Shown here: positions 923 to 63,469 of the stretch, in pieces
How the letters are laid out: each line of letters starts with the position of its first letter
Position numbering within the stretch: the first letter of the stretch is position 1
IMG/VR virus record: IMGVR_UViG_3300001528_000360
Coordinates: 64,001-128,000 of that record
Direction: 5' to 3' (one strand)
Source of the DNA: a virus
Lineage: Duplodnaviria; Caudoviricetes
Length of the DNA stretch: 64,000 nucleotides
Notes under the pieces: model-generated
What the model saw: only the letters and a program-made list of their open reading frames with translations
Database searches by the model: none
Told to the model about the DNA's origin: nothing
Made by a program: the position numbers and the translations under genes

Positions 923-3792
923 TTAATAGCTTTCTGAATTTTCATCATTACTCTTAGTCTTTTCTTCAGCTTTTTCTTGAATAAGTTCAATTTTAGCATC
1001 TTTAACAGCTTCTTCAGCCTTAGCCCAATCAAGCATAGGTAAGTACTGTTTAGCCAATGTTTTAAAGACTTTATCTTTGATCTTATTAGAATCTTGTGTC
1101 TGATCAGCATTTTCACCAGTAATGATTTTAATCATATAACTAACAACCTGATCTGTATTATTAAGAACATCGCCCATATTCATAGTGTTAAGAGTCTTAG
1201 GCGGATTAAATGTAAATACAAATTTTTCTATAACCTCTTCAGGAATAGAAATATTAGAATGTTTTAAAATTAATTTATATAGATCAGTTATAGAGGGATT
1301 AAGATCCATCTGATATGAAATGACACGTCCAACAAACTTACTATTAGCCATAGTAAGAGTTTTAGCAAAGTCAACTTCATTAATATAATTCATAATAACC
1401 GATGGGACCAAATATCTTCATATAGGGTCGTTACTCCTATACCGTCCTAAAGAATAGGACTGCTCTAGCTTTCACTAGAAGTTGAGACTATATCTTCATC
1501 CTTAATAATAAGGAGCCTTCCATTTCCACTCACTTGAGTGTACTCTACTCACTTAATGAATCTCTATTGTATAAAGATCATTGTTTTCGATAGTCGTTGA
1601 ACCTTTCTTATATAAAGACATATAAGGCTTGGATGCTGATTGTCTACAAAAAATGTAGAGTTCCCAGCATTTAAGAAGGGTTTTAAATACACATTACTGT
1701 GTATTCTGGCATATTTTTACCAGTTCCAGAAATCATGTTATTACGAAGCATTTCCATGAGGTCAGTATTAAGAGGAATATCCTGTCCTTGCAGAATATCA
1801 AATTCAATACCACGCTCGCCACTACGTCCAACCAAAAATGTTCATATGAGTTCGTTAATCTCACACCGTTCAATAAAGAACTGCTCTATATTTCTATAGA
1901 GACCAGACTATATCTTCATCCTTTATTAAGGAGCTCTCCATTTCCATCCACTTGGATGTACTAATAGTCGTTGAACCTTACTCATTAAGAGTCTTGGCTG
2001 CTGATTATCTATTAAAGACTTTCCAGCAATTAAGAGAGTGCTTTTGTATATATCACTATATACAATCCCCATTGGACAGTTTAGGGATAAATATTTCCTT
2101 ATAAGCACCAATCTTTGAAATGATTGAGTTATAGTTTAAAAGGTCCATAAAGTTGATTTGCCTACCTTTCACGGAACGCGCAACTTCTTGAACCTTGTTT
2201 GTAATGTTAGCGTCCATACCAGAATTCTTTACATAGTAAATTCTCTGGTCATTTGATCTACTAACAATAGATACAAGTTTGAAAATAAGTAATGCTAAAT
2301 AAAGTTTAGCATAGAATAATGCCTTAGAAAGAACAGACTGACCATTACCCTCTGCATCTTCATTGACTTTAAATTCAATGATATAATCTGCAGGAATAAA
2401 CTGGAACTTAATCTGCTTTTCATAAAGATTATTATACAATAAAGCATTGAAAATTAAATCTTTAAATTTAGCATTATCATCAAGGAATTTCTTATCAAAA
2501 GATTTAATAATTTTATCAGTAACTTTTCCAAGGAACATAGTTTCTACATCCTCAGTATTTTGATACTGTTGACCAGAAGTCATATTAGTTACTTTGATCG
2601 TTGTAGAGAACGGGGACTTATTCACTTGGAAATCTGTGTCATGAATATAATAATAACCGATAGTAGTATCAAGAATCTTAACAGGAATAATTTTCTTAGG
2701 CTCAATATATTTGATATAGCAATCAGTTATATCATCAAACTTATTCTTACCCTTAGATTTTCCTTCCTTAATATCTAATGTACCATCCGTAGAAGGACCA
2801 TATTTCTTAATGGTTTCATCTCTCTTCTTACGGAAAGCATCATTATCAATTAATTCGTCAAGATTAACTCCTTCAATTAAAGGAATAGATACTACATCAT
2901 TAATAACTGAAATATTAGAAGTATACTCCTTAGTAATTTCAGCTAATTTACTAGGATTAATATCTTTTTCAATAGTTTTACCTTCTTTAGTGGAAGATTC
3001 TAAAGAAATTTTCATATTCTTATCATTAAACTCTTTATTTAATTCTTTAACAAAATCTTCATCAATACTTTCACTAATAGGACTTGTAGTAAATCTATTT
3101 TTAATTTTTCTGTCATATTGCTCTTGGAATAATTTGGAATACGGACAGCAATATACATAATATGTACCATAACGAAGTACATTCGGAATGATCATATTTT
3201 TAATTTTAATTAAGAGTTTTAATCTATTTTCAATTTCCCTAACAGTAGCAATATAATTTTCAGTATCTTGATCATTAGACATATTTTCAAAATTAAGTGT
3301 TCTTGATACTGTAGTGGAAATATCATCAGATGTTACGATAGCATCTCTTGTAGTCATGATTGCTTCTTCAAGTTCAAATAACTGAGAAGAAATCATTTCT
3401 AAGTCTTCATATAATAAACTCTTATTCTGATATCTTTGCTGGAAAAATTCAAATAAACCAGCAGTATCATTTTCAAAGATATCATTTAATGTTTTAGCAT
3501 TAGTAGTATCTTTATTATCGAAGTCATTGAATAACTTAACAAGAAATGTTGACATATCATCTGAAGTAATACTCTTTGTATTAGTTAATTCAGCATTGAT
3601 AATTTTATCAACATTTTGATTTAATCTCTGAAGTTCTACACTATGTTGATCACTAATACCAGTAATTGTAGTAGAAAGCTTTGTAATAGATTGATTAAAA
3701 GCATCATTCAATTCTATTAAATCTTTCTTAGTTTTTTCAATATTATTAGCTTTCTCTTTACTTGTTGCCATATATGTATCACAACCTTTCAT
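923..3792 (-). CDS. Portal protein (T4 gp20-like), 3 exons, ~769 aa spliced
   Basis: Exons 3792-2083, 1832-1719, 1408-923 join in frame: RIYYVKNSG...EIFIP|VGRSGERGIEFDILQGQD...MISGTG|VPSVIM, matching the gp20-type portal core pattern. Confidence 0.75.
1409..1718 (-). ncRNA. Group I intron (portal intron 2), ORF-less, 310 nt
   Basis: P/Q/R/S cores (AATGCTGGGAA, AATCAGCA, GTTCAACGACTA, AAGATATAGTC); P1 CUGGU/GCCAG with U.G; ends in G. Confidence 0.93.
1833..2082 (-). ncRNA. Group I intron (portal intron 1), ORF-less, 250 nt
   Basis: Core motifs; P1 AUCCCU/GGGGAU; 7-bp P10 GUCCAAU/GUUGGAC; ends in G. Confidence 0.95.
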
Positions 3793-3817
3793 AGTTGGAC
3801 TTTATACATTTTAAGTC

Positions 3818-3830
3818 TTATTAAAATGTT
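3818..3830 (-). promoter_or_regulatory. Late-type promoter motif AACA-N6-TAA
   Basis: AACATTTTAATAA upstream of the portal gene. Confidence 0.6.
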
Positions 3831-3856
3831 TCGTAGCTTATTTTAAACAAAAAAAT

Positions 3857-3885
3857 AGAGACTATAGGTTTTCCCTATAGTCTCT
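3857..3885 (-). terminator. Intrinsic terminator
   Basis: 12-bp stem AGAGACTATAGG/CCTATAGTCTCT plus T tract on the minus strand. Confidence 0.75.
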
Positions 3886-4572: not shown

Positions 4573-7135
4573 TTAATCCTTATTTATATTAATATTGACC
4601 TGGTCAATAAAATATTTAATAAAATTAGAAATAGAATGTCTTCTACGAGGTTTAATTTTAAATCTCTCCTTCATCAACTCATTTACTTCATTAACATCAG
4701 GAAGATTAAACCATTTAGTACCCATAGATAAAATATCTCCGGTAAGATAATTATCTAAGAAATCTTTTCCTGAATCATAACCAATATTAAATTCTTTATC
4801 TTCTTCTTCAGCATCTTCATCATAGACAATATCTACAATTTCATCACTAACAAAGAAATGATCATATCTATCTTCAGTAAATTCTGGAATAATTATTTTA
4901 GAAATCATTGTATGTCGTTCAATATTAAATGCAATAATAATATGTGGGTACATCGCACTAAAATCCATATCAATAACATTACTAAATGCATACATTGAAC
5001 GTTTTCCAAATAATTTAATTCCAGTATGTGAATTCAAAAGTGGGTTACCAACTCATTGATGTTCAGATAGATCCGTTACTTCTATCCCGTCTATTAAGAC
5101 TGCTTTATATCTCTATAAAGATCAGACTATATCTTCATCTTTATTTAAGATGCTCTCCATTTCTACTCACTTGAGTATACAAATTAGTCGTTGAACCTTA
5201 CTCTTTCGAGTCTTGGCTGCTGATTATCTCAAAGAGACTTTCCAGCAATTAAGAGAGTTTTTAATATCATATTACTATAATATGCACCTGTTATTTAAGC
5301 GCTCCAGTAAACCCTTCACTTTTAGTAGTACTAAAGATATTTACATTATTACCTAAAATATTTCCTTGCAAAAAGTATTCATAATAAGCACGTGATTTTA
5401 ACATCATTTAATGTTCATATAAGATCGTTAATCTCATACCGTTCATTTAAGAACTGCTCTATATTAACTATAGAGATCAGACTATATCATCATCTTATTT
5501 AAGATGCTCTCTATTTCCATTCACTTGAATGTACTAATAGTCGTTGAACCTTCCTTATTATAAGGCTTGGCTGCTGATTATCTTATAAGAGACTTTCCAG
5601 CAATTAAGAGAGTTTTTAATATCATATATCACTATATGTATGGTCAGTTATTTTAACCGTCTGTTTGAACACTTTATCTACATCACAAATATTTGCAGAT
5701 GATCTAAGATAAAGATTATCAATATCATGTGCTTTTCTTTCTATGCCCATTTGAAGAAGAACGTCTTTTATATTATATTTCACAAACTTACGATAATTAA
5801 CATATGGTAAAGTTTTGATATTTGCTTCATCTGAGTAATCGAGTTTCTTGTCACCCAGCTCAGCTTCACCAATGGCATTTAAGCTATTAGATCGTAATTC
5901 ACTTTGACCTTTACGAGTTGCTGCATAAAGGATCATTTGGTCTATATATTTAGTATATGAAGATACTTTAAAGAAACTTCCTTTATTTGCAATTTGGAAA
6001 TTTCTTTCATCTTCATGTAATTTACACATTTTATATTTGAAATCTTTATGACAAATAATTTCAAAAGGATCTAAATCCAAAACATTCATTCTGTTAAGAA
6101 TATATGGAAGGTCGACATTATGTTCATATAAGATCGTTACTCTTATATCGTTCATTTAAGAACTGCTCTATATCACTATAAAGATCAGACTATATCTTCA
6201 ACTTATTTAAGTTGCTCTCCATTTCCATTCACTTGAATGTACAATTAGTCGTTGAACCTTACTCTTTAAGAGTCTTGGCTGCTGATTATCTTATAAAGAC
6301 TTTCCAGCAATTAAGAGAGTTTTATGTGAGCTCATTTTAACCCACAGCCATTCCATATCAAGCAATAATCACGTTTGAGAGTATTAATTAATTTAAACAT
6401 ATCTGTTATAAGTTTTCTTTCATCATCATACATATAAATATAATATGAAAGAACACCATATGACTCATCAAATGCTTCATGCAACTCATTTGTAAAATTA
6501 TCAATATCATTTACAAACTCATTAATCAAAGGATTATCAGGATTATTTAATAAGAAAGTGTATACTGAGTTTGTAATATCATCTACAATTGTTACTGCAT
6601 TAATTGGACAAGAGCCATCTCGTACAAATCCTACAGCATCAATTGTATCAACCTCTATATCTAGATATGTCTTTGTAAGAGGTTTTAATTTTTCATTTTC
6701 ATATTCTAACATCCATTGAGTTCTATAAAATACATCAATAGGAATATCAGAACCAAAGACATATGGATAAGAATGAATCTTGTTAATATCAGAATATCTT
6801 CCACTTTCGATTAATCGCTTTAATTCATTTACATACTCAGGACCAGCCTGTTCTGCAATATACCAAGGAAGTTTCTTATATTCACAAGTATGTTTATCAC
6901 ACTTATCAATTTCCATGAAATTTTTATTATATTTAAAATTTCGATACTCATCTTTCACAAAATAAATATCAATAGTAGGATTTTCAATACTCTTAACATG
7001 TTTCTCCTCACTATCAATATCTTTGTATATAACATCTAAACAATCAATTCTATCATTTTCTTTTCTAGGGGGATGATAAAGAATATCAAGTAACATGATA
7101 TTTTCTTTATCAATATTTTCTTTCAAAAATTTCAT
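4573..7135 (-). CDS. Family B DNA polymerase, N-terminal subunit (3'-5' exonuclease plus motif A), 4 exons, ~614 aa spliced
   Basis: Exons 7135-6340, 6115-5655, 5404-5298, 5053-4573; ExoI YLDIEVD, ExoII WNGCG|FDLPYI restored by splicing, ExoIII YNIKDV, FTGAL|VGNP, motif A DMDFSAMYP. Confidence 0.92.
5054..5297 (-). ncRNA. Group I intron (polN intron 3), ORF-less, 244 nt
   Basis: Core motifs; P1 GCGCU/GGUGC; ends in G; restores GAL-VGNP. Confidence 0.93.
5405..5654 (-). ncRNA. Group I intron (polN intron 2), ORF-less, 250 nt
   Basis: Core motifs; P1 GGUU/GACC; ends in G (an in-frame alternative G lies at 5402). Confidence 0.92.
6116..6339 (-). ncRNA. Group I intron (polN intron 1), ORF-less, 224 nt
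   Basis: Core motifs; P1 UGUGGGU/GCUCACA; ends in G; interrupts the ExoII motif. Confidence 0.95.
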
Positions 7136-7889: not shown

Positions 7890-10088
7890 ATGAAAGACGG
7901 TGATTATATGATTAATTCAGATAGTTACATCTTTTTAAAAAGATGGAAGAAAGAAAATCGTAAAATTCTTCAAAGGTTATATCCTGAAATTTCTAAGAAA
8001 GATATTAATTCTTTCTTAGATGATATTATTAATGAAAGAATCAAGAATCCAAAGGTGATTCTTGATAATAATTATATTGGAAAACAGATTAATACGAATC
8101 TGTTAGATACAACAAATTGGATTCATAATACAGATCCAATATGTGCTGGTCATGGTGTTTTATTTAAGAACCAGCATCAGGTTATAAATCCATTGGCTAT
8201 AATGATTCAAAAATTCTTAACTTCTCGTAAGAAGTTTAAAGGACAGCTTAAATTTATTAAAGATAAGACATCATATGAATATCAAACATTCGATAGAAAA
8301 CAGTTATCAGAAAAGATTTGTGCTAACTCAATATATGGTACGTTTGGTAATGTGGTTTCGTTTCTGTTTAATATGTATACAGCTCCCTCTGTAACTGGTT
8401 CTGGTCAGTCATTAATCAGTACAACAGAACAGGCATTTGAATCATTCTTAGCAAATAACTCTTTATTTAATAATATTAATGAGTGTTTTACATTTATGAA
8501 TAATGTATTGAATGAAGAGTATACCGTTGATTCTACATTCTTAAAAGATGTAGAAATTGAGAAAGTATTTACTAGATTAGTAAATACTTTTTATAATTAT
8601 CAAGATTCTTATACTGATATTTTAACATCATTCTTAGAAACTCTTAGTCAAGATGAACTTAATAAGATTTATTATAAGAATAATATTTATGAGTTCTCTA
8701 TGCATCAAGAGATTCTAAGTTTATTAACTAATATTGTTAGAAATACAGAGGAATTTAAAGATCCGAATAAAGTTCCTGAATCTAGTAAAGAGTATCTAGA
8801 GGAACTTTGGAAATATTATAGTCAGTTTGTATTATATAATCATTCTCCGATTAATCGTATTCAGAGATTAAAGAACGATAGACGTAAAGTAGTTCTTACA
8901 ATTGATACAGACTCAAACTTCTTAAATCTCAATCCTTGGGTTGAGTTTATGTTTAATAATATTATTAATAATGATTATACTTGTGAAGGACGAGACGAAG
9001 ATTCTCTTAAATTTATTGCAGTTAATACTATGGCATTTTGTATTACTAATATGATGAAAGAAGTTCTTTGGAGATATACAAAAGATGCAAATATTCCAGA
9101 GGATTATAGATCTTTCATTAATATTAAGAATGAGTTCCTTATGTCAAGAGTTGTATTAGCTAGTAAAAAGAAAAGATATTTCAGCTCCATTCGTTTAAGA
9201 GAGGGAGATGAAATCTGGCCGGAGAAATTAGATATCAAGGGTTTGAATATAGGCTCATGGTTCCTTAATTGCTGGAAAATCTATATAGATAATCAGCAGC
9301 CAAGACTCTTATATAAGAGTAAGGTTCAACGACTAGTCACAATGACGTACATTCAAGTGAATGGAAATGGGAAACCATCAATTATATATTGATGAAGATA
9401 TAGTCTCATCTCTATGGAGACATAGAGCAGTTCTTAAAAAAGAACGGCGAGAAAGTAACGAATTCTCGTGAAGAATTTGCATGATTTCATGAAATCTACG
9501 GCCACAAAAGAAACTCAAGACAAGTATAAGGATATTATTAAGAAAAGAATTATTAATACAAAAGATATTGATGTAGTAAAAATCTTAAATGATATTGAAG
9601 ATTTTGAAAATGAGATATTACAATCACTTCATAATGGTGAAAAAAAATATTTAATTCCTAACTCTGTAAAAGAGTTAGAAGCATATAGTGAACCGTTAAG
9701 AATGCAAGGTGTACGTGCAGTTATTGCATGGAATTATATATATCCTGATATGGAGATTCAACTTCCTACTAAAGTTGATTTGGTAAAAGTTAATTTAACA
9801 GAAGAAAAGAATTTAATGAAATTGAAAAATGATTATCCTGATGTATATAAAATAGTTAATGAAAAGATTTTAAATAATCCAGATAAGAGAATTTCTGATA
9901 AAGGTTTAGCAATTATTGCAATTCCTAGAAATATTGATAAGATTCCTGAATGGATTATACCATTTATTGATTATGATACAATTGCATATAACGTATTAAA
10001 TAAATTTTATCCTGTATTAGAATCTTTAGGCTTAGATACTATTAAGACCTCTAAGAAAGAGTATTTCAGTAACATTTTAAGTATTTAA
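7890..10088 (+). CDS. Family B DNA polymerase, C-terminal subunit (motifs B and C, thumb), 2 exons, ~653 aa spliced
   Basis: Exons 7890-9242 and 9480-10088; motif B KICANSIYG, motif C TIDTDS, KKRY, junction LDIKG|HDFMKS. Confidence 0.92.
9243..9479 (+). ncRNA. Group I intron (polC), ORF-less, 237 nt
   Basis: AATTGCTGGAAA, AATCAGCAGCC, GTTCAACGACTA, AAGATATAGTC; P1 GGGU/GCUC; ends in G. Confidence 0.95.
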
Positions 10089-19242: not shown

Positions 19243-22200
19243 ATGAGGAGGGACGTGTTTGTGAGCAACAACAAAGAATTCATCCGTATAGATGAATGGA
19301 GCCCGACAAAACGTGATAACATAATCCTATATGATGGAAAACTTATTGTTATTCCTTTTGATAAGATATTCAATCGCCAGAATAATGAGGCTTTGAATAA
19401 TTTTATTATTAAGAAGGAATCTTATGTAAAAAAGTTAGATCACATCACACACTACATCAATTATTTTATTAAATATTATGATGATGATAACGAGTTACTG
19501 TTATCATATTTAAAGTTAAAATTCTTAATTGACAATAAGTCAAATAATATTCCTATTAGTACTTTCATTAAATTAGTATATAATATTCTTCTTACTGATT
19601 CTATGATTGAAAAAATTAATAAGTTAGTAGAAGATAATTATTATATTGATTTATCTCCTGAAGATACTAATAAGAAGTATAATGAAACACTTGAGTTTAC
19701 AGAAGAACATGCAAAAGTTTTAATGTCAATTTCAATGGCTATGAAACTTATGGTTCCTGTAATGTTTCATTATCTTAATTCTTATGGTCTTATCAAAGAA
19801 AGATCATATATATTCAGATTCTATGAAGGTCTTTTTGATACATTCGGAAATAATATTGATATCTATAATAAGTTATGGGTATCTATCTATGCAAAAGTAA
19901 ATGTCAACTATGTGAGAAATAGCGTTATCTGGGAACAACGCGAGATTAACTAAAAATAGTCTCGATCATATAGCAATATATGATTAGAAACCTCTTTAAT
20001 TGCTGGGAAATCTAAACAAGTAATGTTGTAGACAATCAGCAGCCAAGACTTATTTATATAAGTAAGGTTCAACGACTATCGAAAGCATATCTATAAAAGA
20101 AATTTTATAGAGAAGAAGTGAGTAGAGTACACATATTTATTATATGTGGAAATGGGAGGCTCTTTATATATGGTTATAGTGTATAAAGATGAAGATATAG
20201 TCTATTCCTTATAGAAATATAAGGTATCAAAGATTTGGTGTTAACGCTTTAACTCATATGACTGAATTACTTAAAGATAAAATTATTTCTGAAACTATTT
20301 TCAAATATGAATTCAATAAGAACATTGTGTCGTTAACTAATTAAGCGACATATGTATAGTAATATACATTAGCAACTCTCTTAATTGCTGGGAAATCTAA
20401 ACAAGTAATGTTGTAGATAATCAGCAGCCAAATAATTATACAAATCAAATTTACAAAAAATAAAAAAAAATAATATTGAATGGAGGTGAAAACATGAGTA
20501 AAGAAATATGGACAAAAATATATTATAATAATGAAAAGTTACACTATAGTGTTAGCGATTGTGGACAAATCAGAAATGATAAGACAGGTAATATTTTAGC
20601 ACAATCATCAGATGATAATAATTATAAATTTATAACATTAGAATTAAATGATGGAACTCGTAAAATGTTTAGAGTTCATAGATTAGTTGCTAGTATGTTT
20701 ATGCCTGTTCGTTGTTCTGATGAAATAGAAGTTAATCATAAAGATGGCAATACTTCAAATAATAATATTGAAAATTTAGAATGGTGTACTCATGCTGAAA
20801 ATATGAAACATGCTAATGCTAATAACTTAATTAAGCGTAATACAGGTGACGATCATCCAGGATGTAAATATTCTGATAAATTTATTGATGATGTAGTATC
20901 ATTAATGAGACAAGGTTTAAATAATAGGGAAATTTGTGATAGATTAAATATTAAATCAAATCATAAATTAATAGCATTATTTACTAGTATTAGAAAAGGT
21001 AGAGGAAGATTAAAATCTACTAAAAACTTTGATGATATTCCTTCACATTCATCTAAGAAAAAATGGGATGAAAAATTTGTTAAAGATATATGCAAATTAT
21101 TATCAAAAGGATATTCTACATTAGAAGTTGCAAGTAGATTAGATTTAACTGGTAAATCATCTACTGAAGTTAAAGCATTAATTAGAGACATCAAAAAAGG
21201 TAAACGATTTAAAAGTATTGGAATTACATATGATTTGTATAATTAAAGGTTCAACGACTATCGAAAGGATACTATAAGAGAAATACTTATAGGAGTAACC
21301 GAGTAGAGTACACTTCAAGTGAAGTGGAAATGGAGAGCATCTTATATATGGTAACAGTATATAAGATGAAGATATAGTCTAATCTCTATAGTAATATAGA
21401 GCAGTTCTATTTTTAGAACGATATAAGAGTAACGATCTTATATAAATACTAATGTTAATTATGTTGTTATTGATAAGCAGTTAAGATTCTTTTTGGTTGA
21501 GCCATACAAGCTCAATAGAATCGAGTTATCTGCACATCGAGATGCAAGCGGATTGTCTGGGTAAAGTTTAGCTCAGTATAAACTCTCTTAAATGCTGGAA
21601 AGTCTTTTATAAGATGATCAGCAGCCAAGACTTATTTATATAAGTAAGGTTCAACGACTAGGTGAAAACCGTACATCCAAGTGGATGGAAATGGAGAGCA
21701 TCTTAAATAAGATGAAGATATAGTCTGGTCTCTATAGAAATATAGAGCAGTTCTTAAATGAACGGTATAGAAAGTAACGAGTCTATACGAACATAACATA
21801 GACAAATTAGAAATGAACGCTGCAAAAATCGATGAAAGCACAGTAATTTTATCTAACATCAATATTAAAAAGACACTTAAAAGAATCAAGAATAAAATGC
21901 ATATAGATATTTCTAAAGAGGAAATTGAATATTATAAGCATAATTTGAATATTACTAAATTCCAATCTCAATTAGTATTCTATTATTATGCAAAGTATTT
22001 TAATGGATATAGAGACCTGAATTTGTTAAATAGAACTCAATATCTGAAATTGTTAATCATGTTAAAGAAGAGATTACAGTTTCAATCTTATGTATATCTT
22101 CCGCAGATTATATCCTCTAATGTTGAAAGTAAGCTGAATAGTAGAACGATAAGAAATGATAAGTTCTTAACTAAGATTCAAAGTTCGGCTATTTATCAAC

Positions 22201-22394
22201 ATATTATTCAGGATAAATATTCTGCATTGAATGATATTGGAAAAGAAGATTTAATAATTAATATGCTGTCTACATTGTTGAATACATCATTCACATTTGT
22301 AGATTATGATAATAAAGAAGCATTAGGAAAAACAATAGAAGTAAATCAGGATGTTATTTCTGATGAATTTTTGAATTTCTTAAATCAGTTATAA
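19243..22394 (+). CDS. Probable sigma-like promoter-specificity subunit of the non-virion RNA polymerase, 4 exons, ~502 aa spliced
   Basis: Exons 19243-19946, 20233-20333, 21455-21562, 21799-22394 join in frame (WEQREI|FGVN...KNIVS|FNYVV...SGLSG|LDKLEMN); early motif at 19215; identity inferred from size, context and recalled resemblance to AR9 gp226-type proteins. Confidence 0.55.
19947..20232 (+). ncRNA. Group I intron, ORF-less, 286 nt
   Basis: Core motifs; P1 CGAGAU/GUCUCG; ends in G. Confidence 0.93.
20334..21454 (+). mobile_element. Group I intron with HNH endonuclease in the P6 loop, 1121 nt
   Basis: P1 UGUCGU/GCGACA; 7-bp P10; ORF lies between Q and R; ends in G. Confidence 0.94.
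20476..21246 (+). CDS. Intron-encoded HNH homing endonuclease (start probably 20494)
   Basis: VHRLVA...VNHKDGNTSNNNIENLEWCTHAENMKH plus C-terminal HTH-like repeats. Confidence 0.93.
   Translation: MNGGENMSKEIWTKIYYNNEKLHYSVSDCGQIRNDKTGNILAQSSDDNNYKFITLELNDGTRKMFRVHRLVASMFMPVRCSDEIEVNHKDGNTSNNNIENLEWCTHAENMKHANANNLIKRNTGDDHPGCKYSDKFIDDVVSLMRQGLNNREICDRLNIKSNHKLIALFTSIRKGRGRLKSTKNFDDIPSHSSKKKWDEKFVKDICKLLSKGYSTLEVASRLDLTGKSSTEVKALIRDIKKGKRFKSIGITYDLYN
21563..21798 (+). ncRNA. Group I intron, ORF-less, 236 nt, apparent terminal A
   Basis: Core motifs; P1 CUGGGU/GCUCAG; P10 GUUUA/UAGAC places the 3' splice site after A21798 (alternative G at 21801). Confidence 0.9.
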
Positions 22395-35914: not shown

Positions 35915-36005
35915 TGGCGGACGCTCAGGGATTCAAACCCTGGATACCTTATCAGGGTATTACAGTTTTCAAGACTGTCGCCTTCGATCACTCGGCCAAA
36001 CGTCC
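35915..36005 (-). tRNA. tRNA-Ser(TGA)
   Basis: Acceptor GGACGTT/AGCGTCC, discriminator G, encoded CCA, anticodon stem ACAGT/ACTGT with loop CTTGAAA, long variable arm; T loop reads TTTGAAT. Confidence 0.92.
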
Positions 36006-52171: not shown

Positions 52172-54268
52172 TTAGGACTTATACTTAAAATATTTATATG
52201 CCTCTTTGATAGGCATAACCTTCTTGCCATCTTTCTTGGCTTTATCAATCTTACCAGAAGAACTGTTTTCATCATCACAAATAACAATGTCAACTTTCTT
52301 CCCATAAGAATCACAAACTTCAATATTCTTTTCTTCGAGATAATCTTCAAATTTCTTATCTCTTACTTTTGTAAATACAACATGCATGATATACTCTTTC
52401 GTATCATGCTTAATGAGTAATTCCTTTTTCAAGAATTCAATTAATTCAATATTCATCAAAATACCAACAATAATTTTATTTGCTGACTTTTCCTGAATAC
52501 CTGGAATTTTTGTTAATTCACTAACTTCATGATTCATAGCTATTCTTACTATGTCATCTATATAATATATACTTAAAATCTTTTTAAAAATTTTCGGTCC
52601 AATGTCTGGAATACCAATAGAACCTAATAGATTATAATCGTAAACTGTTCTTCTACTATCAATTCCTTTTAAGATATTTTCAACTGATTTCGTTCCAAAA
52701 CCTTCAATCTTAGCAATATCACGTTTGTTATGCTTTATTTTATATAAGTCTTGAATTGATTTCAAATATCCTAATTCGAATAAAGTACTTACAATTCCAA
52801 TACTAATACCTCTAATATCCATCTTATCAAGATAGTTAACAATCTTTCCAATAACTCTCGATGGACAATTATTGTTGACACATCTAAGAATTGGATCATT
52901 AATTAACTTTTCTCCACAATATGGACAATGTGTAATCGTTGGAATAATCTCATTATTACTTCTTTTACAAGTATCATCTATATAAAGATATGGAATAATG
53001 TCATATTTAATTAATACTTCATCACCTTTACTAAGATGAAGACTTTCAAATCTATCAATAGAACCTAAAGATACATTAGAAATTGTATTTCCTTCCATCT
53101 TTACAGGTTCGATTTTAGCAACAGGAGTTAAAGCACCTAATAGACCAATAGAGAATGTAACATCAATTAATTTCGTTTTTACAGACTCAGGAGTAAACTT
53201 ATATGCAACTTCATATTTATTAATTGCATCATCTCGTCCTAATGCTTTCTGTAAATTCTTATCTTTAAATTGAATAACAACACCATCAATTGGAATGTCC
53301 ATTACATCTTTCATATATGCTTTAATAGTATTAATACCATTAATCATATGATTCTCATTATTTATCAATGTGTAAATAACAGGATATACCTTTGATGCAT
53401 CTGGATGTACAATAACTTCTTTTGTTTCATAATTTTGCATTCTCAAAGGAACTACAGTAATATATTTCAAATAATCAAATTCTACATCTTGAGAATTGAT
53501 AATTGAACTTGCTGCAGATCGACAAGACTTGAATGATCCATATTTCTTACATAACTTATTAAAGTTCTTATATGTAACAATAATTTCACATTTTACTCCA
53601 AATTCAACATTACCCCATTCAGGATAAGGTTCAAATTTTAAAAGCTTAAATAATTTTGTAATTGGAACAGCTTCATTATTTTTAACATTACCTCTGGTTA
53701 ATGCTTTAATAACTCTTCCATCTGGTGCACATTCAAAAATTGCAGATACACCATCAAACTTAGGATATAATGCAACTTCCATTTCTGCATCTATAAGACT
53801 TCTTCCAAGTCTATTTTCAGAAGTCTTAATAAAGTCTTCAACACTTTTTCTTTTATCTTTTCCTTTTTCTTTATTTGTGAGAAAATGTACTTTATCAAGA
53901 GTTCCTCGTAAATCAGGATACTTATGAAAATCTTTTTCTCTTAAAGAATCTGCATCTCCACCAACAATATCTCCATTAGAAATCTCATTATAGATCTCAT
54001 ATAATGTGTCATATGTCTCATCATTAATTGGAGGAAGTACACCGGAATTATTATAAATATTCTGAAGAATACGAATGATCAATTCAATAATCATTACATC
54101 TTCAGGACTATACTCTTTATCATAATTAATATAATAATTTACTAAATTATTAATTTTGATTCCTTCTAAAACTTTAATCAATTCTTCAAAGTTTTCTGAT
54201 ACTTTACTTTCTTCATAAACTCTGTGTAATGACTGAATTAAATTGTTTTTATCAATCATAGTTGCCAC
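52172..54268 (-). CDS. ligA: NAD-dependent DNA ligase
   Basis: PKFDG, ALTRG, IDGVVI, VAYKF, TPVA..EPV, Zn finger CPYCG, HhH repeats, BRCT; early motif at 54303-54312. Confidence 0.95.
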   Translation of the reverse strand: MATMIDKNNLIQSLHRVYEESKVSENFEELIKVLEGIKINNLVNYYINYDKEYSPEDVMIIELIIRILQNIYNNSGVLPPINDETYDTLYEIYNEISNGDIVGGDADSLREKDFHKYPDLRGTLDKVHFLTNKEKGKDKRKSVEDFIKTSENRLGRSLIDAEMEVALYPKFDGVSAIFECAPDGRVIKALTRGNVKNNEAVPITKLFKLLKFEPYPEWGNVEFGVKCEIIVTYKNFNKLCKKYGSFKSCRSAASSIINSQDVEFDYLKYITVVPLRMQNYETKEVIVHPDASKVYPVIYTLINNENHMINGINTIKAYMKDVMDIPIDGVVIQFKDKNLQKALGRDDAINKYEVAYKFTPESVKTKLIDVTFSIGLLGALTPVAKIEPVKMEGNTISNVSLGSIDRFESLHLSKGDEVLIKYDIIPYLYIDDTCKRSNNEIIPTITHCPYCGEKLINDPILRCVNNNCPSRVIGKIVNYLDKMDIRGISIGIVSTLFELGYLKSIQDLYKIKHNKRDIAKIEGFGTKSVENILKGIDSRRTVYDYNLLGSIGIPDIGPKIFKKILSIYYIDDIVRIAMNHEVSELTKIPGIQEKSANKIIVGILMNIELIEFLKKELLIKHDTKEYIMHVVFTKVRDKKFEDYLEEKNIEVCDSYGKKVDIVICDDENSSSGKIDKAKKDGKKVMPIKEAYKYFKYKS

Positions 54269-55584: not shown

Positions 55585-58500
55585 TTACAACTTAATATCA
55601 ATTACATAATTATCTCTTCTCATCTTCGCATCTTCAAATTCAGTATCAACTAATTTCAAAAATTCTTCATCTGTTCCAACGAAACAAACATCATCACGAT
55701 ATTTCTTAAGAATTTTATCTTTTAGTTTAATGTCTTCATACTCTTTACGAGTAGAGATAATATACATAGTATCAGACTCAAAAGATTCAAGATTATCTGA
55801 ATAAATAGGAATATCATAATAGTCATCTAGGTATTCGATCTTCAATCCCATTGCCTTTAGATAAGCTTGAAGTATCTCTACATTTCTATTAGTGAAATTA
55901 CCACTCTTCTTAAAATCTTTTAAAGTCTTTACAGTTGTTGCTAGTTGCTTTCCAATGTCTCTACGTCCAATAACACTTGAACGATAAAACATATGAAGTT
56001 TAGCAACTTCCTCAGGATCTACACCGATAAGACTGTTTATATTTTCTTGCAAAATCTTCACATAAGTTCGTTAATCTTATGCAGTTCTCTTATGAACTTC
56101 TCTATATCTCTATAGAAGTTGAGACTATATCTTCATCCTTATAATAAATAAGGAGCTCTCCATTTCCACTCACTTGAGTGTACTCCTACAATAGGATAGT
56201 CGTTGAACCTATATCTAAATATTTATTATTTTAATCTTCCGTTATACAGGTTATAGATATAGTATTGGAAACGTTTTGGGGTTAAATTCAATTCAGGATA
56301 TTTATTACACATAATTCTACTCACCTCAGCTTTAGTATTTCCAGCATCTACTAATTCTTTAATCTCATTAACAAATTTATCTGAAAATTTTACATTACAA
56401 CCATTTTCTCCAACTTTAGTCTTAAGTTTATTATCAAATAATCCTGTTCTAAAAGCATGTTTCATATTTTCATCATGAGTTACCCACTCAAGATTATATA
56501 TAGAATTATTTGATTTATCACCATCAATATGATTAACGAATTGCTTATTATCTAGATTAGGAATGAATTCATATGCAACCAATCTATGTATAAATACAAA
56601 TGTTGAATGCTTCTTCTTACCTGAGGATAATGATACTGCATAGTATCCTTTTTTAGTCTTTTTTGGTTTAAGATATTTATTTGTCTTAGTATTATAAACG
56701 TTCCCATTACTATCTATAGTATACATATCTGGTTTAACACCAGGATATGATATATATTTTTCTATACCAGGAATTTGTACTAACATATTTCATAATTAAA
56801 TATTTAGATATTTTAGCTGCGGATTGTCTCTATCCATAACCTTATTACTATACCTAAGGAATTACCCTTCGCCATTTATATATTTCTATATAAATTTAGT
56901 AGTTATAGCTTAACAAGATGTCCCCGCAATTAAAAGAGTGCTAATTAATATATTACTATATTAATGCAACCAATTATAATATAATCGCCAATTCTTATAG
57001 GGGTGCTAGAATACAGATCCTGATGAATTTTATTCTTAAATGATTTTTCAGGAACACCTTTCTTATTAAGGGATCCTGTAGACCTTGCTGAGAAACCTTT
57101 CTTAGAAGATTGCTTAAGCTTAATCATATAGAGATCGCCAACAATCAAAGGTTTCATGATCTTAATCTTTCTACCCCATCTGTTAACATAAACATCTACA
57201 GGTTTGATAAAATCATAATCTTTATAGATATTTCTGATTCTATCAAACATAGGTTCTTTTTCTTCCCAGAATGGAGGCATATGAATATAAATTCCTCTTT
57301 CATCAACATCGTTAAAGAAATCTTTCTTTCCTTTAGAAGATAGATTCTTATAGTAAGTCTTTAATACTTTTTCTTCTTTTTCATTAAGACGTTTAATGAT
57401 ATCAAAGAATAAAGTTTCTTTTTCTTTTAAAGTTTTAAATTCCCTAAGTTTTTCTACAACTCTATTACAGATAAAGTTGATACTTAACTCATATAACTGT
57501 AAACTGTTCAAGCGATTTATGACACCTAACGCGTTAAGCATGACTTCAACACGTTCACCATTTTCTAAATAAGGCATTTGATCATCAGGTAAAATCTTAC
57601 TGACGACACCTTTGTTACCCTGTCGGCCTGTACATTTATCTTCATATAAGATCGTTACTCTTATACCGTTCTCTTATGAACTGCTCTAATTTACATTAGA
57701 GATGAGACTATATCTTTATCCTATTAGGATATTTCTCATTTCCACTCACTTAAGTGTACGTGCTAAACACTAGTCGTTGAACCTTACTCTTAAAAATTAT
57801 AATTACAAGAAATAGTTTTCCAACTTCTTCTATGTCTAATATGATCTATCAGTTTATACAGCTGTGGATTTGAACTTTTATTATGAAATCCAAAAGTTTT
57901 CATAATTTGCATATTTGAATAACCTTCTTGTAAAAATTCACAAATTCTTATAACTTCATTTTTTGAAAATACATTCAAATAATGATCTTCTCCACATTTT
58001 ATATTTCCTTCAAAAACTCCATAAATACTATTCATTTTACTACTTACCCATTCTAAATTTCCAGCAAAATTATTTTTAGTATTGGAGTCTAAATGATTAG
58101 GAATGTATCCTTCTTTATATCCTTTACAAAATTCCCAAGCTACTAATCTATGAATAGATCTATTCGTTTGATCTTTGCTACTATATTCTGGATCATTCGC
58201 TAATGCAATTCTAAGATATTCTTTGTGTTCAAAAGGTTTTTTAATATTACCAGTTTTAATATTACGAATTTTTCCATAATTACTAATTTCATATACACCT
58301 TTTTTAACTCCAGGATATGTCAGAGGTTTATATACTTCTTTTGTATAAATTAATACTACCATATTATAATATCCTTTCATTTTTAAGAGTCTTGGCTGCT
58401 GATTATCTTATAAAAGATTTTCCAGCAATTAGAGAAAATTCATTTATATATTACTATATAAATGGACTATAATTAATCTTCTGGCCTATAGTTAATGGTG

Positions 58501-60605
58501 AATCTCTTTCAATTAAAAATTCAATAACCATGTTATTGAATACTGAGGTTTCTTCTTTCCACTTCACATCTGGGTTAAGGATATCCTTAGCCTTTTTATA
58601 ATAGAAAGCAATATCGGAAGAATATTTACTTCCACTTGTAATGATCTCTTTACATGTATCTAAAACTTTTTCATAAAAGTTTGTTTGCATAATTAAATAC
58701 TTACGAATCTGATGATTGAAAGCATTGTCAGGAACTTCATCCAATGTTTTATTACAATAGATGATAATATCTTTAACAACACCATCAATATAATACAGAT
58801 TATCATTCATAAAATTAATTTTACGAAGATTAGATTTCTTTAAATCATATAAAACCTGATTATTAAAGATTCGTCTTTTAGCACAAAGTATTTTATCTTT
58901 AGTGTTTTCACCAATATCGGGAAATGCTTTATAATAATCTGCATTACCATAAATATTGCAGAGTATGTCGTTGTCGTTCAAACTAACTTTTACCGTCTCA
59001 ATCTCTTTACTAACAAGACGTTTTGCAAAAGACTCTGAACAAACTATTGCATCCTCTATAGTGTGATTCTCTATCATATAGAGAACTTTTACATTTGTTC
59101 CCATTCTATAATTCATATCTTCATCATATGATGTAGACTTATATAGAACTTCACCTTTTTCGATATGGTCTCCAACTTCTTTTTCATCCATTGCTGTATT
59201 GTCATAACCATATCCAAATTTTTCAGTTAAATCTTCATTAATCATCTTAGTAATAACATCATATCTATCATTCTTTTTATCATAAGTAAATAAAAGATAA
59301 AGATGATTATTCAGATTACCATTTTCAAATCTAGGAATTTTTGCATATACTTCTAGATCTGTCTTAGCTTGATAATAACCGGTAGATAATTTACCAACAC
59401 TATTTTCATAGTTAGTAAATACCTTTGGAACATCAGGATTCACTAGATTAACAAACTGACGCAGGTGACTTGTAAACCAATATCTTCATATAAGATCGTT
59501 ACTCTTATACCGTCTATTTAAAGACTGCTCTATATTACTATAGAGATGAGACTATATCTTCATCCTTAGATGAAGTTTTTCATCTAAGGAGTCTCCAATT
59601 TCCACTCACTTGAATGTACTAATAGTCGTTGAACCTTTACATTTTATCTTTAATTCTATATATAGCTTTTCTTGTAATATTACTATATTCTAAATTAAGT
59701 ATATTACAAATTTTTCTAGGTTTAATATCAGGATTATTAATAAATAATATTTTAATTTTTTCAGAAGTATCATTATCAAATGAAAATATTTTAGGTTTAT
59801 AATTATCTGGATTAATATTATATTTTGATGAAATATTAGATCTTGTTCCATAAAATAAAATATCTCTTATAGCATGATATGAAATACCTGTTACTTCCAT
59901 GATTTCAGAAATAGATACATTATCTTCTAACATACTACATACATTTTCTATAAGTTCATCTGAGTATATTGTAAAATTGCATTTATCTCCATATTTTGGA
60001 TTACAACAGTTTCTATCCCATGCATCATTTACATTTTCTCTATCTGTAGCCCACTCTAAATTAGTAACCTTATTATTATTCTTATTTCCATCAATATGAT
60101 TAACTGTGCGTTTATTTTCAGGATTTGGAATAAATGTTTCTGCAACTAATCTATGTGCCATCTTATAATATTTTTTACCATTATGAACTAAATTTACACC
60201 ATTGTAACCAGTATATTTATTAATGGGTATTTTTATTTCATTATTGGTATTCATATTAAAAAGACGACCATCAGATGAAATTATATACATAGTTTTTTCA
60301 CCATTAATATAAACCCATTTAAAATCAACTTCTTCTGTTTTTATAAATATTATCATATTCTCCCTCCTTTTTATTTTATATATAGATAAAATGTACTTGG
60401 CTGCTGATTATCTCAATGAGATTTTCCAGCAATTAAGGAGATTTGTCTATTATATTACTATAATAGGTCACATTTATTTTATGACATTACGACTGGAACT
60501 AATGTATCCAGGATTAGTCAAGAGCGTCATACCGAATATATCATCGGTAAAATGAAATTCTTTTTCTTTCTGTTCTAGTGCTTCTTTTAAGTTTAAGGTT
60601 GACAT
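55585..60605 (-). CDS. Multisubunit RNA polymerase beta subunit, C-terminal part, 4 exons, ~746 aa spliced
   Basis: Exons 60605-60481, 59477-58476, 57632-56984, 56049-55585; SSRNVM|FTSHLRQ, IEDAI, GQKI|TGRQGNKGVVS..DQMPY, KLKQ..SARSTG, IRIGD|QEN. Confidence 0.94.
56050..56983 (-). mobile_element. Group I intron (betaC intron 3) with HNH endonuclease, 934 nt
   Basis: P1 GCGAU/GUUGC; P/Q variant TGCGG/CCGCA; ends in G. Confidence 0.93.
56226..56786 (-). CDS. Intron-encoded HNH homing endonuclease
   Basis: IHRLVAYEF...VNHIDGDKSNNSIYNLEWVTHDENMKH. Confidence 0.93.
   Translation of the reverse strand: MLVQIPGIEKYISYPGVKPDMYTIDSNGNVYNTKTNKYLKPKKTKKGYYAVSLSSGKKKHSTFVFIHRLVAYEFIPNLDNKQFVNHIDGDKSNNSIYNLEWVTHDENMKHAFRTGLFDNKLKTKVGENGCNVKFSDKFVNEIKELVDAGNTKAEVSRIMCNKYPELNLTPKRFQYYIYNLYNGRLK
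57633..58475 (-). mobile_element. Group I intron (betaC intron 2) with HNH endonuclease, 843 nt
   Basis: P1 GAU/GUC; core motifs; ends in G; interrupts the GQKITGRQGNKG motif. Confidence 0.93.
57790..58380 (-). CDS. Intron-encoded HNH homing endonuclease
   Basis: YEISNYGKIRN...IHRLVAWEF...PNHLDSNTKNNFAGNLEWVS..N. Confidence 0.9.
   Translation of the reverse strand: MKGYYNMVVLIYTKEVYKPLTYPGVKKGVYEISNYGKIRNIKTGNIKKPFEHKEYLRIALANDPEYSSKDQTNRSIHRLVAWEFCKGYKEGYIPNHLDSNTKNNFAGNLEWVSSKMNSIYGVFEGNIKCGEDHYLNVFSKNEVIRICEFLQEGYSNMQIMKTFGFHNKSSNPQLYKLIDHIRHRRSWKTISCNYNF
59478..60480 (-). mobile_element. Group I intron (betaC intron 1) with HNH endonuclease, 1003 nt
   Basis: P1 GUCAU/GUGAC; P10 AAAU/GUUU; ends in G. 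Confidence 0.93.
59637..60356 (-). CDS. Intron-encoded HNH homing endonuclease
   Basis: AHRLVAETFIPNP...VNHIDGNKNNNKVTNLEWATDREN. Confidence 0.93.
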   Translation of the reverse strand: MIIFIKTEEVDFKWVYINGEKTMYIISSDGRLFNMNTNNEIKIPINKYTGYNGVNLVHNGKKYYKMAHRLVAETFIPNPENKRTVNHIDGNKNNNKVTNLEWATDRENVNDAWDRNCCNPKYGDKCNFTIYSDELIENVCSMLEDNVSISEIMEVTGISYHAIRDILFYGTRSNISSKYNINPDNYKPKIFSFDNDTSEKIKILFINNPDIKPRKICNILNLEYSNITRKAIYRIKDKM

Positions 60606-60683
60606 AGATCTACCTTCCTTTTATTTAATTTAATAAATTAGAGAGTGTAGATTTTATTCTACACTCTCTAAATCCATTTCGGT

Positions 60684-60956: not shown

Positions 60957-61020
60957 AGCATTTCAACTCCTTCTATATTTTCTTTGCCACTATGGGTATA
61001 ATATATACTTTAAATATATT

Positions 61021-63469
61021 TTAACATTCAGGTTCAGGTTCAATGGGATCCTCATTAGGCTTAACATAAGAAAGCATATCTTCTAAATACGGAGTAACAG
61101 AATCCATTAAAGTCTTCTTAAGTTCATCACTTTCATTGAAGCATTCCCTGAATTTTCTACTATCAAATTTAATATCTTTATTAGTCTTAAAATATCTATA
61201 GGGATTACGACCATCAATCATATTATTATCAGAAGCAAACTGATAAAGAGTTAAAATAGGATCAAATCCAGTTAATTGATTATAAATTAAATTACATGAT
61301 TGTCCAGACTTATTAGAACGAGATTTAATTAATTCAGCTCGAACCATAAATCCATCAAATCCATCATCTTCTTTTTTAAACTTAGTAGAAGATACAAATT
61401 TAATTAATGTATTAGCATAATATAAAGGAGCGGTACCACCTGGATGTAGGTACATTTATATATGTTTCCATATAAAACAGACTATATCTTCATTTTATAT
61501 TCTATTACCAAATATAAAATGCTCTCCACTTCCACTCTCTATACAGAGTGTACTCTACTTGCTTCTTCTCATAGATATTTCTTCTATGATATGCTTTCGA
61601 TAGTCGTTGAACTTTCTAGTAATTATAATTATTACAAATAAATTTCCATCTTTCTTTTTTATATATTTTTCTTAGAGAATTAATATTTGAAGCTGTTACG
61701 GGTAATGATAAATATTCTAGACAATGAATACAGTGTTGTCTTAAACTTTCATTATCATCTTTAGAATTATTCTGAAAATATTTACATATATTATGAATAT
61801 CATCAAATGAAAATACTTTAGATATTTTTTCAGTTTTAAAATCTAAATTATATTTAGATGATATTTCTTTCCATGCTCTACCTTGTTTAATAGATTCTAC
61901 AATTCCTACAGTTGTTCCAACAAGTTTAGCAATATCCTTTTGCATATACATTCTGGATTCTAGATATTTGCATATTTGTTCAGCTTGTTGTGTAGTGATA
62001 GTTGCACAACAATGTGATTCGCTATGTGCAGGATGTAATAAACCAGAATCTCTAGCATGAATAGAATTACCTTTAATATCAGTCCATTCTAAATTATATA
62101 AAAATGAATTTAATTTATTACCATCTAAATGATTTACTACTTTTCCTTTATAATCATCTAATGGATTAAAAACCATCATTAGTATTCTATGTAATGTAAC
62201 ATCTCGTTGTCTAGTTGTTTTACATGCACATGTAAATACATAATAACCGGTATGTTTATTAACTTTCATTTTTAAGATCTTTTTACTAATAAGACTGTAC
62301 ACTCTAGAATAATTAGATATATAATACCCGTCTTTTATATCTGGAATTTCATTCTCTGTAATTGGTAGAAATATTTCAAGTGGAAATTTTTCTAAAGAAT
62401 CTAATTCTTTATTTTGAGATACATTAAATTTTTTAATATATGACTCAATATCTTTAATCATAATAATAATTCTCCTTGTATTTATAACATAATGCATTTA
62501 TTATTATGTTATAAATACATTTTATAATTACTAGCTTAGTTGCGGATTGTCCAATCTTTTAATTTATTACTATACCTTAGATAGTTAGTCTAAGCCACCA
62601 TAATATTACTATTATAGTTTAGTATTAAAAGCTCTAAGGAGTTTCCCGCAGTTCAGAGAGTTTTTTATAGAGTCCCCTCCAGGATTTTATTTAAGGGACT
62701 CATCTTGCTTAAGGTACATAAGTTGTGATTGTGTCTTAGCAAAAGCACTTACTTCAATCTTTACATTGATATGATTAATAGCAAAGATTGTAATATTGTA
62801 TGTTTTAATAATAGGCATAAGACGACTATAAAATTGCTTTAATTGTTTAGCAGCTCTCATAGCATCTGTCTGTCCCTTCATTTCCTCTTCTCCTTCAGTT
62901 TCTCTAGAAGCTAAAGTAGGAATAGAGTCAACGATAACAATAGTAGGGACATATGCTCTGATAGGATTATTAAATTCATCAACATTACCAGTATCATACA
63001 TAAAAGACTTCTTATCAGATTCTTTCATATTAGCAATGCTGATAATACTATCAAAGATATCTTCAATATAATTCTTCTCTTGTCTTAATACAAATTTATT
63101 ATTAAGCTCTTCTTGAGTAGCTCCAGTAATATTTTTAATTCGTGTATAATTCAATGCTTGCTCTAAATCATAACAGAGAACAAAAGCATCATCACTAAAA
63201 TTCTTTACCATATTATATGCACTTTGGAGAACCCAGGTTGTCTTAGCAACACCGGACTTTCCAATAACAGTTACAAATGTACCACCAGTAATACCAATGG
63301 CAGGGTACTCACCAATTAGTTTTTCATTAATATCCATTACCTTAACTTTATATCCATTAAGGTAATCAAATGTGGAGAATCCTGTAGGATAGTTAACTGA
63401 AACCTGAGAAGAATTAAATAATCCTTTCTTATCCTTCTCACGTAATCTATCGAGTAAACGATTTGCCAT
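61021..63469 (-). CDS. recA: RecA/UvsX-like recombinase, 2 exons, ~399 aa spliced
   Basis: Exons 63469-62694 and 61444-61021; Walker A GKSGVAKTT, YDLE, IVDSI, AINH, junction DESL|PGGTAPLYYA, IKSR. Confidence 0.9.
61445..62693 (-). mobile_element. Group I intron (recA) with HNH endonuclease, 1249 nt, apparent terminal A
   Basis: 8-bp P1 GAGUCCCU/GGGGACUC; 6-bp P10 CCUGGA/UCCAGG; last intron nucleotide is A. Confidence 0.93.
61616..62497 (-). CDS. Intron-encoded HNH homing endonuclease (start probably 62461)
   Basis: YYISNYSRV...LHRILM...VNHLDGNKLNSFLYNLEWTD..N..H plus C-terminal HTH. Confidence 0.9.
   Translation of the reverse strand: MHYVINTRRIIIMIKDIESYIKKFNVSQNKELDSLEKFPLEIFLPITENEIPDIKDGYYISNYSRVYSLISKKILKMKVNKHTGYYVFTCACKTTRQRDVTLHRILMMVFNPLDDYKGKVVNHLDGNKLNSFLYNLEWTDIKGNSIHARDSGLLHPAHSESHCCATITTQQAEQICKYLESRMYMQKDIAKLVGTTVGIVESIKQGRAWKEISSKYNLDFKTEKISKVFSFDDIHNICKYFQNNSKDDNESLRQHCIHCLEYLSLPVTASNINSLRKIYKKERWKFICNNYNY

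Follow-up and report, generated by a model that had tools for sequence, protein, structure and literature searches.

The locus described here raises a question in three parts: what are the related elements that interrupt eight core genes of a phage, can the interrupted genes still be expressed, and how did so many copies come to lie together? We analyzed a window of 64,000 nt comprising bases 64001–128000 of the 152,429-bp IMG/VR virus record IMGVR_UViG_3300001528_000360 (CheckV completeness, 62%). The window contains 18 elements (I01–I18) in the genes of a portal protein, the two parts of a DNA polymerase, four parts of a non-virion RNA polymerase (nvRNAP), and a UvsX-like recombinase. The elements are most probably self-splicing IA-like group I introns of one modular family that circulates in these jumbo phages and has spread within the lineage. 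A preliminary description, prepared without database searches, had claimed 18 such introns covering approximately 9.1 kb, or 14% of the window. The junctions determined here give 9,111 nt (14.2%) with identical outer limits (1409 and 62693), and the distribution among the eight genes is exactly as claimed (portal, 2; DNA polymerase exonuclease part, 3; DNA polymerase catalytic part, 1; gp226-like subunit, 3; beta′ C-part, 3; beta N-part, 2; beta C-part, 3; uvsX, 1).

The window contained exactly 18 copies of the sequence GTTCAACGACTA. When up to 2 mismatches were allowed there were 20 matches against 3.7 expected, a number reached by none of 100 shuffles, and AAGATATAGTC with up to 1 mismatch gave 21 matches against 4.5 expected. 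At each of the 18 places, four motifs followed one another in a fixed order on a single strand, the first two having diverged in I17 and I18. In the Rfam alignment, these motifs map to P4, P4′ (with the start of P6), J6/7–P7, and J8/7–P7′, and the 12-nt P7 element was identical in the 18 introns. The Rfam group I covariance model RF00028 (gathering score, 50 bits), a search proposed in the preliminary description, matched 16 of the 18. Eleven introns scored above the gathering score (75.6–101.6 bits), and I08, I15, I16, I17, and I18 scored below it (35–41 bits, with E values no worse than 3e-5). In these five the match was split by the inserts in P6. I13 and I14 also carry inserts in P6 and had no RF00028 match; they were found only by the exact motifs and by the family hidden Markov model (HMM), an nhmmer profile of the intron 3′ half built from the 18 window introns. 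In size, 11 introns are compact (224–310 nt), and the other seven hold 269–927 nt between the P4′/P6 element and P7, which corresponds to the P6 loop.

The predicted secondary structure was examined with RNAalifold on the 11 compact copies. Nearly half of the predicted pairs (20 of 43) were altered on both sides and yet remained paired, including pairs in the long-range helix P3, in P9, and in P9.2. A conserved hairpin predicted between P7 and P3′ (columns 199–219) also showed compensatory changes, and the Rfam alignment placed an insert of 30–37 nt exactly between P7 and P3′, where the preliminary description had seen extra stems. From these extra hairpins, taken as P7.1/P7.2, the introns appear to be IA-like, perhaps of type IA2. 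A P1 helix of 3–8 bp with a U·G pair at the 5′ splice site was found in all 18 introns (guide G at intron positions 9–17), and such a P1 was also found in all nine family copies outside the window; the preliminary description had likewise given each intron its own P1. P10 of 5–8 bp was found in 6 of the 18. The last nucleotide was G in 16 window introns and in 25 of the 27 introns of the record, and a P9.1/P9.2 tail was present in 15 of 18. An in-frame stop within 12 codons of the intron was common, not universal (14 of 18), and was given no weight. The elements would represent the intron type common in phages of Firmicutes, in which a P3–P9 core is joined by additional P7–P3′ hairpins and, in most cases, by a P9.1/P9.2 tail; each internal guide pairs with the 3′ end of the exon upstream of it, leaving U·G at the cleavage site.

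The window is AT-rich (G+C 24–34%), and a megablast search with 20 kb of it against GenBank phages gave no match. In a tblastn search, an 879-residue SbcC-like protein of the window matched, at approximately 40% identity, the Bacillus phages AR9, PBS1, and BpSp, Listeria phage LPJP1, Staphylococcus jumbo phages, Yersinia phage phiR1-37, and Fusobacterium phages. From these matches the source is an uncultured AR9-like jumbo phage, a member of a group encoding two multisubunit RNA polymerases. Relatives were reached via protein searches, and complete relatives were located through an RNA polymerase beta exon. G001 (264 kb) is the closest relative, with approximately 72–86% protein identity. G001 and G004 (218 kb, with terminal repeats) are both complete and served as the intron-less references. 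Host genes were named by local tblastn against AR9 together with the AR9 GenBank annotation; Pfam and PHROG hits agree, and the gene identities proposed earlier are those of the AR9 homologues.

Removal of the introns in silico gave reading frames without internal stops for all eight genes, which bears out the claim that excision restores the frame. All eight genes are single continuous open reading frames (ORFs) in G004, and seven of the eight are continuous in G001. Seven spliced products aligned to G001 without gaps over 387–667 residues at 75–86% identity, the product of the DNA polymerase exonuclease-part gene (614 residues, 0 gaps) among them; the spliced portal product was 72% identical, with gaps. 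The junctions were fixed by aligning the G001 proteins to the window, and I03, I05, I09, I11–I13, and I18 were placed on that basis. The shortest internal exons measure 39 nt (13 codons, between I11 and I12) and 45 nt (15 codons, between I13 and I14), and the former, the mini-exon GRKSLIFNKNVMG, is 100% identical to G001. By our reading of the peptides, several insertion points seem to fall in conserved motifs: I03 would interrupt an Exo II-like motif, I05 would lie directly upstream of polymerase motif A, and the beta-subunit GxKxxxRxGNKG and a RecA-type GG would also be affected. The positions of the introns and genes are given in Table 1.

Table 1. Positions in the window of the introns, their host genes, and other features. 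RF00028 scores are in bits.
Feature	Position	Strand	Host gene	Length (nt)	Structure	Support	Junction
I01	1833–2082	-	portal	250	ORF-less	RF00028 98.9	P1 ATCCCT/GGGGAT; P10 8 bp; gapless vs G001
I02	1409–1718	-	portal	310	ORF-less; long P7.1 region	RF00028 77.3	supported
I03	6116–6339	-	DNA polymerase exonuclease part	224	ORF-less; no P2	RF00028 92	P1 7 bp; without gaps
I04	5405–5654	-	DNA polymerase exonuclease part	250	ORF-less	RF00028 86.5	site occupied in G003 too
I05	5054–5297	-	DNA polymerase exonuclease part	244	ORF-less	RF00028 94.6	from G001 alignment; P1 GCGCT/GGTGC
I06	9243–9479	+	DNA polymerase catalytic part	237	ORF-less; no P2	RF00028 84.3	LDIKG/HDFMKS, without gaps
I07	19947–20232	+	gp226-like nvRNAP specificity subunit	286	ORF-less; long P7.1; no 3′ tail	RF00028 75.6	
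I08	20334–21454	+	gp226-like	1,121	endonuclease ORF 20476–21246 in P6 loop	RF00028 3′ half 39.1	P1 8 bp; P10 7 bp
I09	21563–21798	+	gp226-like	236	ORF-less	RF00028 98.9	last base A
I10	34851–35129	-	nvRNAP beta′ C-part	279	ORF-less	RF00028 89.4	
I11	34453–34712	-	nvRNAP beta′ C-part	260	ORF-less	RF00028 101.6	
I12	34133–34413	-	nvRNAP beta′ C-part	281	ORF-less	RF00028 94.4	
I13	49811–50293	-	nvRNAP beta N-part	483	269-nt P6 insert without ORF	motifs, family HMM	YRG/LDPSYLG
I14	49145–49765	-	nvRNAP beta N-part	621	124-residue ORF 49278–49652 in P6	motifs, family HMM	
I15	59478–60480	-	nvRNAP beta C-part	1,003	HNH ORF 59637–60356	RF00028 3′ half 35.1	
I16	57633–58475	-	nvRNAP beta C-part	843	HNH ORF 57790–58380	RF00028 35.3	splits motif QKI/TGRQGNKG
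I17	56050–56983	-	nvRNAP beta C-part	934	enlarged P5; HNH ORF 56226–56786	RF00028 38.1	
I18	61445–62693	-	uvsX	1,249	enlarged P5; no 3′ tail; HNH ORF 61616–62497	RF00028 40.8	last base A; P1 8 bp; P10 6 bp
Portal gene	923–3792	-			3 exons; spliced ORF of 769 residues without stops	homologue of AR9 g128 portal vertex protein	
DNA polymerase, exonuclease part and partial catalytic part	4573–7135	-			4 exons	AR9 g132; phrog_3011	
DNA polymerase catalytic part	7890–10088	+			2 exons	Pfam divDNApol, DNA_pol_B; AR9 g152	
nvRNAP fifth (promoter-specificity, gp226-like) subunit	19243–22394	+			4 exons	AR9 g226; phrog_25005	
nvRNAP beta′ C-part	32978–35807	-			4 exons	AR9 g154; phrog_3015	
nvRNAP beta N-part	48845–51640	-			3 exons	AR9 g105; phrog_2943	
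nvRNAP beta C-part	55585–60605	-			4 exons	AR9 g089; phrog_3295	
UvsX-like recombinase	61021–63469	-			2 exons	AR9 g086; phrog_97	
tRNA-Ser gene (anticodon TGA)	35915–36005	-			directly upstream of the beta′ C-part gene		
SbcC-like ATPase gene	42661–45300	-			among the intron-rich genes, itself uninterrupted		
NAD-dependent DNA ligase gene	52172–54268	-			among the intron-rich genes, itself uninterrupted		
Intergenic tandem array	27264–27485				36-bp period, approximately 6 units, 71–80% matches		

In regards to expression, it is very likely that the eight core genes depend on self-splicing. The introns would be excised from the precursor mRNA, so that the portal protein, the two-part DNA polymerase, four of the five nvRNAP subunits, and UvsX could be made only from spliced mRNA. 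The exons of 39 and 45 nt cannot act as separate proteins.

Two irregular 3′ splice sites, which the preliminary description had not mentioned, were found in I09 and I18. For each of these introns the gapless protein alignment, P1 (6 and 8 bp, respectively), and P10 (5 and 6 bp, respectively) agree on one junction, and this junction leaves A as the last intron base (21798 and 61445) in place of the canonical G. The P7 elements of both introns are unchanged, and the other 25 introns of the record fit U...G junctions. An orthologous intron in the relative G003 occupies the I09 site with the same P1 and ends in G, and the terminal A of I09 therefore looks like a derived substitution. Alternative in-frame G residues lie 3 nt downstream in I09, where their use would turn Leu-Asp into Tyr, and 6 nt downstream in I18, where Pro-Gly would be lost from the conserved PGG. 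Nothing relevant on natural introns without a terminal G was found in a literature search.

Pfam identified HNH_3/NUMOD4 endonuclease genes, also absent from the preliminary description, in five window introns (I08, I15, I16, I17, and I18). The I08 ORF matched HNH_3 at 1.5e-12 in addition to NUMOD4, and the I16 ORF matched both domains. The I15 and I17 ORFs matched HNH_3 at 9e-10 and 1.8e-12, respectively, with NUMOD4 below its cut-off. In the I18 ORF, NUMOD4 was above its cut-off (6e-5), and HNH_3 (1.3e-3) was below (18.7 vs 24.8 bits). Each of the five ORFs is located in the P6 loop of its intron, with the AATCAGCAG element on one side and GTTCAACGACTA on the other, and the five proteins share only 29–42% mutual identity. 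Paralogous genes occur inside introns of G001 and G003, and one more HNH gene was found in a family intron outside the window. We take these enzymes, whose activity is predicted, to be of the I-HmuI type. Thirteen window introns have no recognizable endonuclease: 11 are compact and ORF-less, the insert of I13 contains no ORF, and I14 carries an unrelated ORF of 124 residues. The I14 ORF belongs to no Pfam or PHROG family, and neither it nor the I13 insert is similar to the HNH genes of the sister introns. Outside its own genome, the I14 ORF was matched only in G001, where tblastn gave a weak hit (34% identity, E 8e-6).

We determined the extent of the family in the whole record and found 27 copies in 13 genes, amounting to 12,249 nt, or 8% of the DNA. 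The nine copies outside the window lie in five genes (record positions 23639–23883, 43983–45606, 137077–137344, 145298–148055, and 151011–151278); two of these genes have three introns each, the HNH-bearing copy being in one of the two, and all nine fit U...G junctions. The build of the family is modular: some copies have P2 and others lack it, P5 can be short, extended, or very large, and P7.1 comes in a short and a long form. The median pairwise identity among copies was 62%. The best pair, I11 and X7, lies in different genes; the two are 89% identical, match exactly over a run of 69 nt, and have one guide sequence in common. I04 and X1 are 86% identical with different guides, in keeping with the proposal of one scaffold with retargeted guides. 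When intron 3′ halves from five genomes were compared (approximately 100–230 nt), the nearest copy lay in the same genome for 23 of the 27 record copies. In the tree built from these sequences, the introns of the record interleave with those of G001 and G003, and AR9 introns mostly form their own clades; beyond this pattern the tree was given little weight.

Site occupancy was compared across nine related contigs. In every relative examined, the closest one included, approximately 14 of the 18 sites have no intron, and uvsX is uninterrupted in all nine. G001 or G003 has an intron at three or four of the 18 sites at least. Only the I17 site is filled in G001; in G003 the I04 and I09 sites are filled, and probably also one near I12. 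Relatives hold introns at sites that are empty in this phage. The beta C-part gene of G002 and G003 has an intron in the same GRQGNKG motif as I16, at a point approximately 6 codons farther downstream (breaks between high-scoring segment pairs at 386/387 vs 381), and neighboring yet distinct insertion points seem to be used in different phages. The intron counts are summarized in Table 2. Per 100 kb, the record has approximately 18 introns and the window 28, a density approximately 2.5 to 3 times that of AR9 (approximately 6 to 7). A pattern scan of IMG/VR found the core motif pair to be widespread, mostly 1 to 3 per stretch among the matches listed.

Table 2. Group I intron matches in the record and in related phages. 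Rfam, matches at E ≤ 0.001; family HMM, hits where run.
Genome	Size (kb)	Rfam	Family HMM
This record	152	23	27
AR9	251	18	16
BpSp	256	12	
G001	264	14	10
G003	247	14	15
G002	210	5	
phiR1-37	262	5	
LPJP1	224	3	
S6	267	0	
G004	218	0	0
G005	234	0	

These results partly support a lineage-specific expansion of one retargeted scaffold, as the preliminary description had suggested. The nearest-copy comparison and the many sites unique to this phage speak for such an expansion, and the presence/absence pattern agrees with it in that most sites are empty in relatives; on the other side, the family itself is shared, with 0 to 16 copies in each relative, and homing endonuclease genes are present. For the five HNH/NUMOD4 copies, the probable mode of movement is homing at the DNA level, with intron-less alleles as its targets during co-infection. 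The 13 copies without an endonuclease may have arisen by endonuclease loss and ectopic spread within the lineage with changed guides. Three points weigh against the reading of self-splicing introns that spread within the lineage. The identities among copies are modest and the tree sequences short, and the timing and mechanism of spread are therefore weakly constrained. Clades and several sites are common to G001 and G003, which indicates that part of the load was inherited or exchanged and would not have been gained in this lineage. Finally, because the homology-supported junctions of I09 and I18 end in A, accurate exon ligation is doubtful for the gp226-like and uvsX genes.

A different origin for the ORF-less copies would be that every copy homed from a co-infecting relative with the same site occupied and that the endonuclease was later lost, with no intragenomic retargeting. 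This is possible, and we regard it as doubtful. Six introns of the record still hold HNH genes, as such a history would predict, and the 269-nt insert of I13 and the non-HNH ORF of I14 sit at the same place and could be remnants or replacements; they retain, however, no resemblance to those genes. Known members of the clade have plastic intron positions (Korn et al., preprint), but a search of the nine related contigs found no donor carrying introns at these sites. Near-identical scaffolds in unrelated genes of one genome, with the guide the same in I11/X7 and different in I04/X1, are also difficult to reconcile with homing alone.

Within-lineage spread could also be taken further than we take it. 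The phage would then be the most intron-dense virus known: its 27 introns in 152 kb would correspond to perhaps 40 or more over a full genome of approximately 245 kb, and the load would have been acquired through intragenomic ectopic insertion of ORF-less introns with retuned guides (e.g., by reverse splicing) and not through classical homing. The introns ending in A would splice at a non-G base or at in-frame cryptic sites, the latter giving variant gp226-like and UvsX proteins. We consider this combination unlikely. As a signature of reverse splicing, the same 5′-exon tetramer was sought in a hand count and was found in 2 of the 10 closest pairs against approximately 7% of all pairs, which is too weak for any claim.

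Older introns, present in the common ancestor and precisely lost in the relatives, would require no expansion in this lineage. The orthologous G003 intron with the same P1 at the I09 site, the occupied I04 site in G003 and I17 site in G001, and the subtypes common to several genomes are what this history predicts. It does not account for the roughly 14 sites that are empty in all relatives examined, for the eight genes being intron-less in AR9, or for two complete relatives entirely without introns. Moreover, 23 of the 27 nearest copies lie at other sites of the same genome, which is unexpected unless gene conversion homogenizes the copies. An ancestral origin of most of the introns is thus quite improbable.

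That the elements are decayed, non-splicing insertions in pseudogenes or in genes expressed as fragments is hardly credible, for although I09 and I18 lack the canonical terminal G, the P7 element is invariant and the helices are kept by compensatory changes, the exons are in frame, stop-free, and 72–86% identical to intact homologues, and the genes are essential (portal, DNA polymerase, and RNA polymerase) with exons of 13 and 15 codons that cannot function alone.

Self-splicing introns of one modular family, spread within the lineage, thus remain our preferred reading, and they have practical consequences. Gene callers would break the eight core genes into approximately 26 fragments, which confirms the earlier warning about automated annotation, and the junction table permits correct annotation. 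The known upper range of viral group I intron load is raised to approximately 18 per 100 kb, and none of the relatives examined so far is as dense. The sister genomes with 0, 10, and 15 family copies are natural comparators for the spread of ORF-less introns and the retuning of guides, and they could also show whether the endonucleases of RNA polymerase gene introns act as weapons between co-infecting jumbo phages. No new element type or mechanism is revealed: introns of this kind, their preference for these genes, and the presence of several in one gene are known already, and it is the density that stands out.

The group I introns of Bacillus phage AR9/PBS1 (Takahashivirus) were reportedly described by Lavysh et al. 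in 2016. AR9, a uracil-DNA-type jumbo phage with two multisubunit RNA polymerases, has proteins 25–37% identical to those of the source phage. The intron family is shared, I11 being 78% identical over 89% of its length to introns of AR9 and PBS1. In AR9, as in the source phage, essential genes have several introns, some of which carry HNH or other endonucleases. The AR9 GenBank record (KU878088) gives terL in 5 joined pieces, the beta-N gene of the virion RNA polymerase in 6, and another four genes in 2 or 3, with intron-encoded endonucleases annotated. In contrast, none of the eight genes split here is interrupted in AR9, whose introns sit in terL, the virion RNA polymerase genes, a protease gene, and virion protein genes, and AR9 has 16 family HMM hits in 251 kb compared with 27 in 152 kb here.

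Phages SPO1/SP82 (I-HmuI and I-HmuII) and the Twort-/K-like Staphylococcus phages resemble the source phage in having an IA-like core with an endonuclease ORF in a peripheral loop and in the insertion of introns into DNA polymerase and other conserved genes. They carry one to a few introns per genome, approximately five in Twort, compared with 27 in this record. In a BLAST search, I11 showed approximately 70–74% identity to introns of Twort- or K-like phages and of other Firmicutes phages.

The genes for RNA polymerase subunits, DNA polymerase, terL, protease, and gyrB are commonly disrupted by introns in AR9 and MarsHill-like phages, and exon numbers and boundaries differ between close relatives (Korn et al., preprint). 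The statement in the preliminary description that phages carry none or a few group I introns does not hold for this group, in which such disruption is typical and AR9 alone has 16 family copies. Unlike those described here, the introns of the MarsHill-like phages were inferred from protein alignment alone; the related Staphylococcus phage S6 gave no RF00028 match in our analysis. In the jumbo phage PhiPA3, gp210 is an intron endonuclease in an RNA polymerase gene that interferes with a competing phage (PMC11620839). The beta C-part gene of the source phage has three introns with homing endonuclease genes of this kind; PhiPA3 belongs to the nucleus-forming phiKZ-like family, and interference with a competing phage would be only a possibility here.

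High intron loads have also been reported in lineages unrelated to this one, in phages of Bacteroidota hosts. The crAss-like Zeta group has up to 14 introns per genome of 145–192 kb (PMC7886860), and Jug phages have a mean of 18.5 per genome of 360–402 kb, where metatranscriptome reads confirmed the splicing of 37 of 76 predicted introns (PMC12880540). As in the window, core genes of these phages are fragmented by many short ORF-less group I introns. Their densities by published counts are approximately 5 to 10 per 100 kb (Jug, approximately 5; crAss-like Zeta, up to approximately 10), compared with approximately 18 per 100 kb in the record analyzed here.

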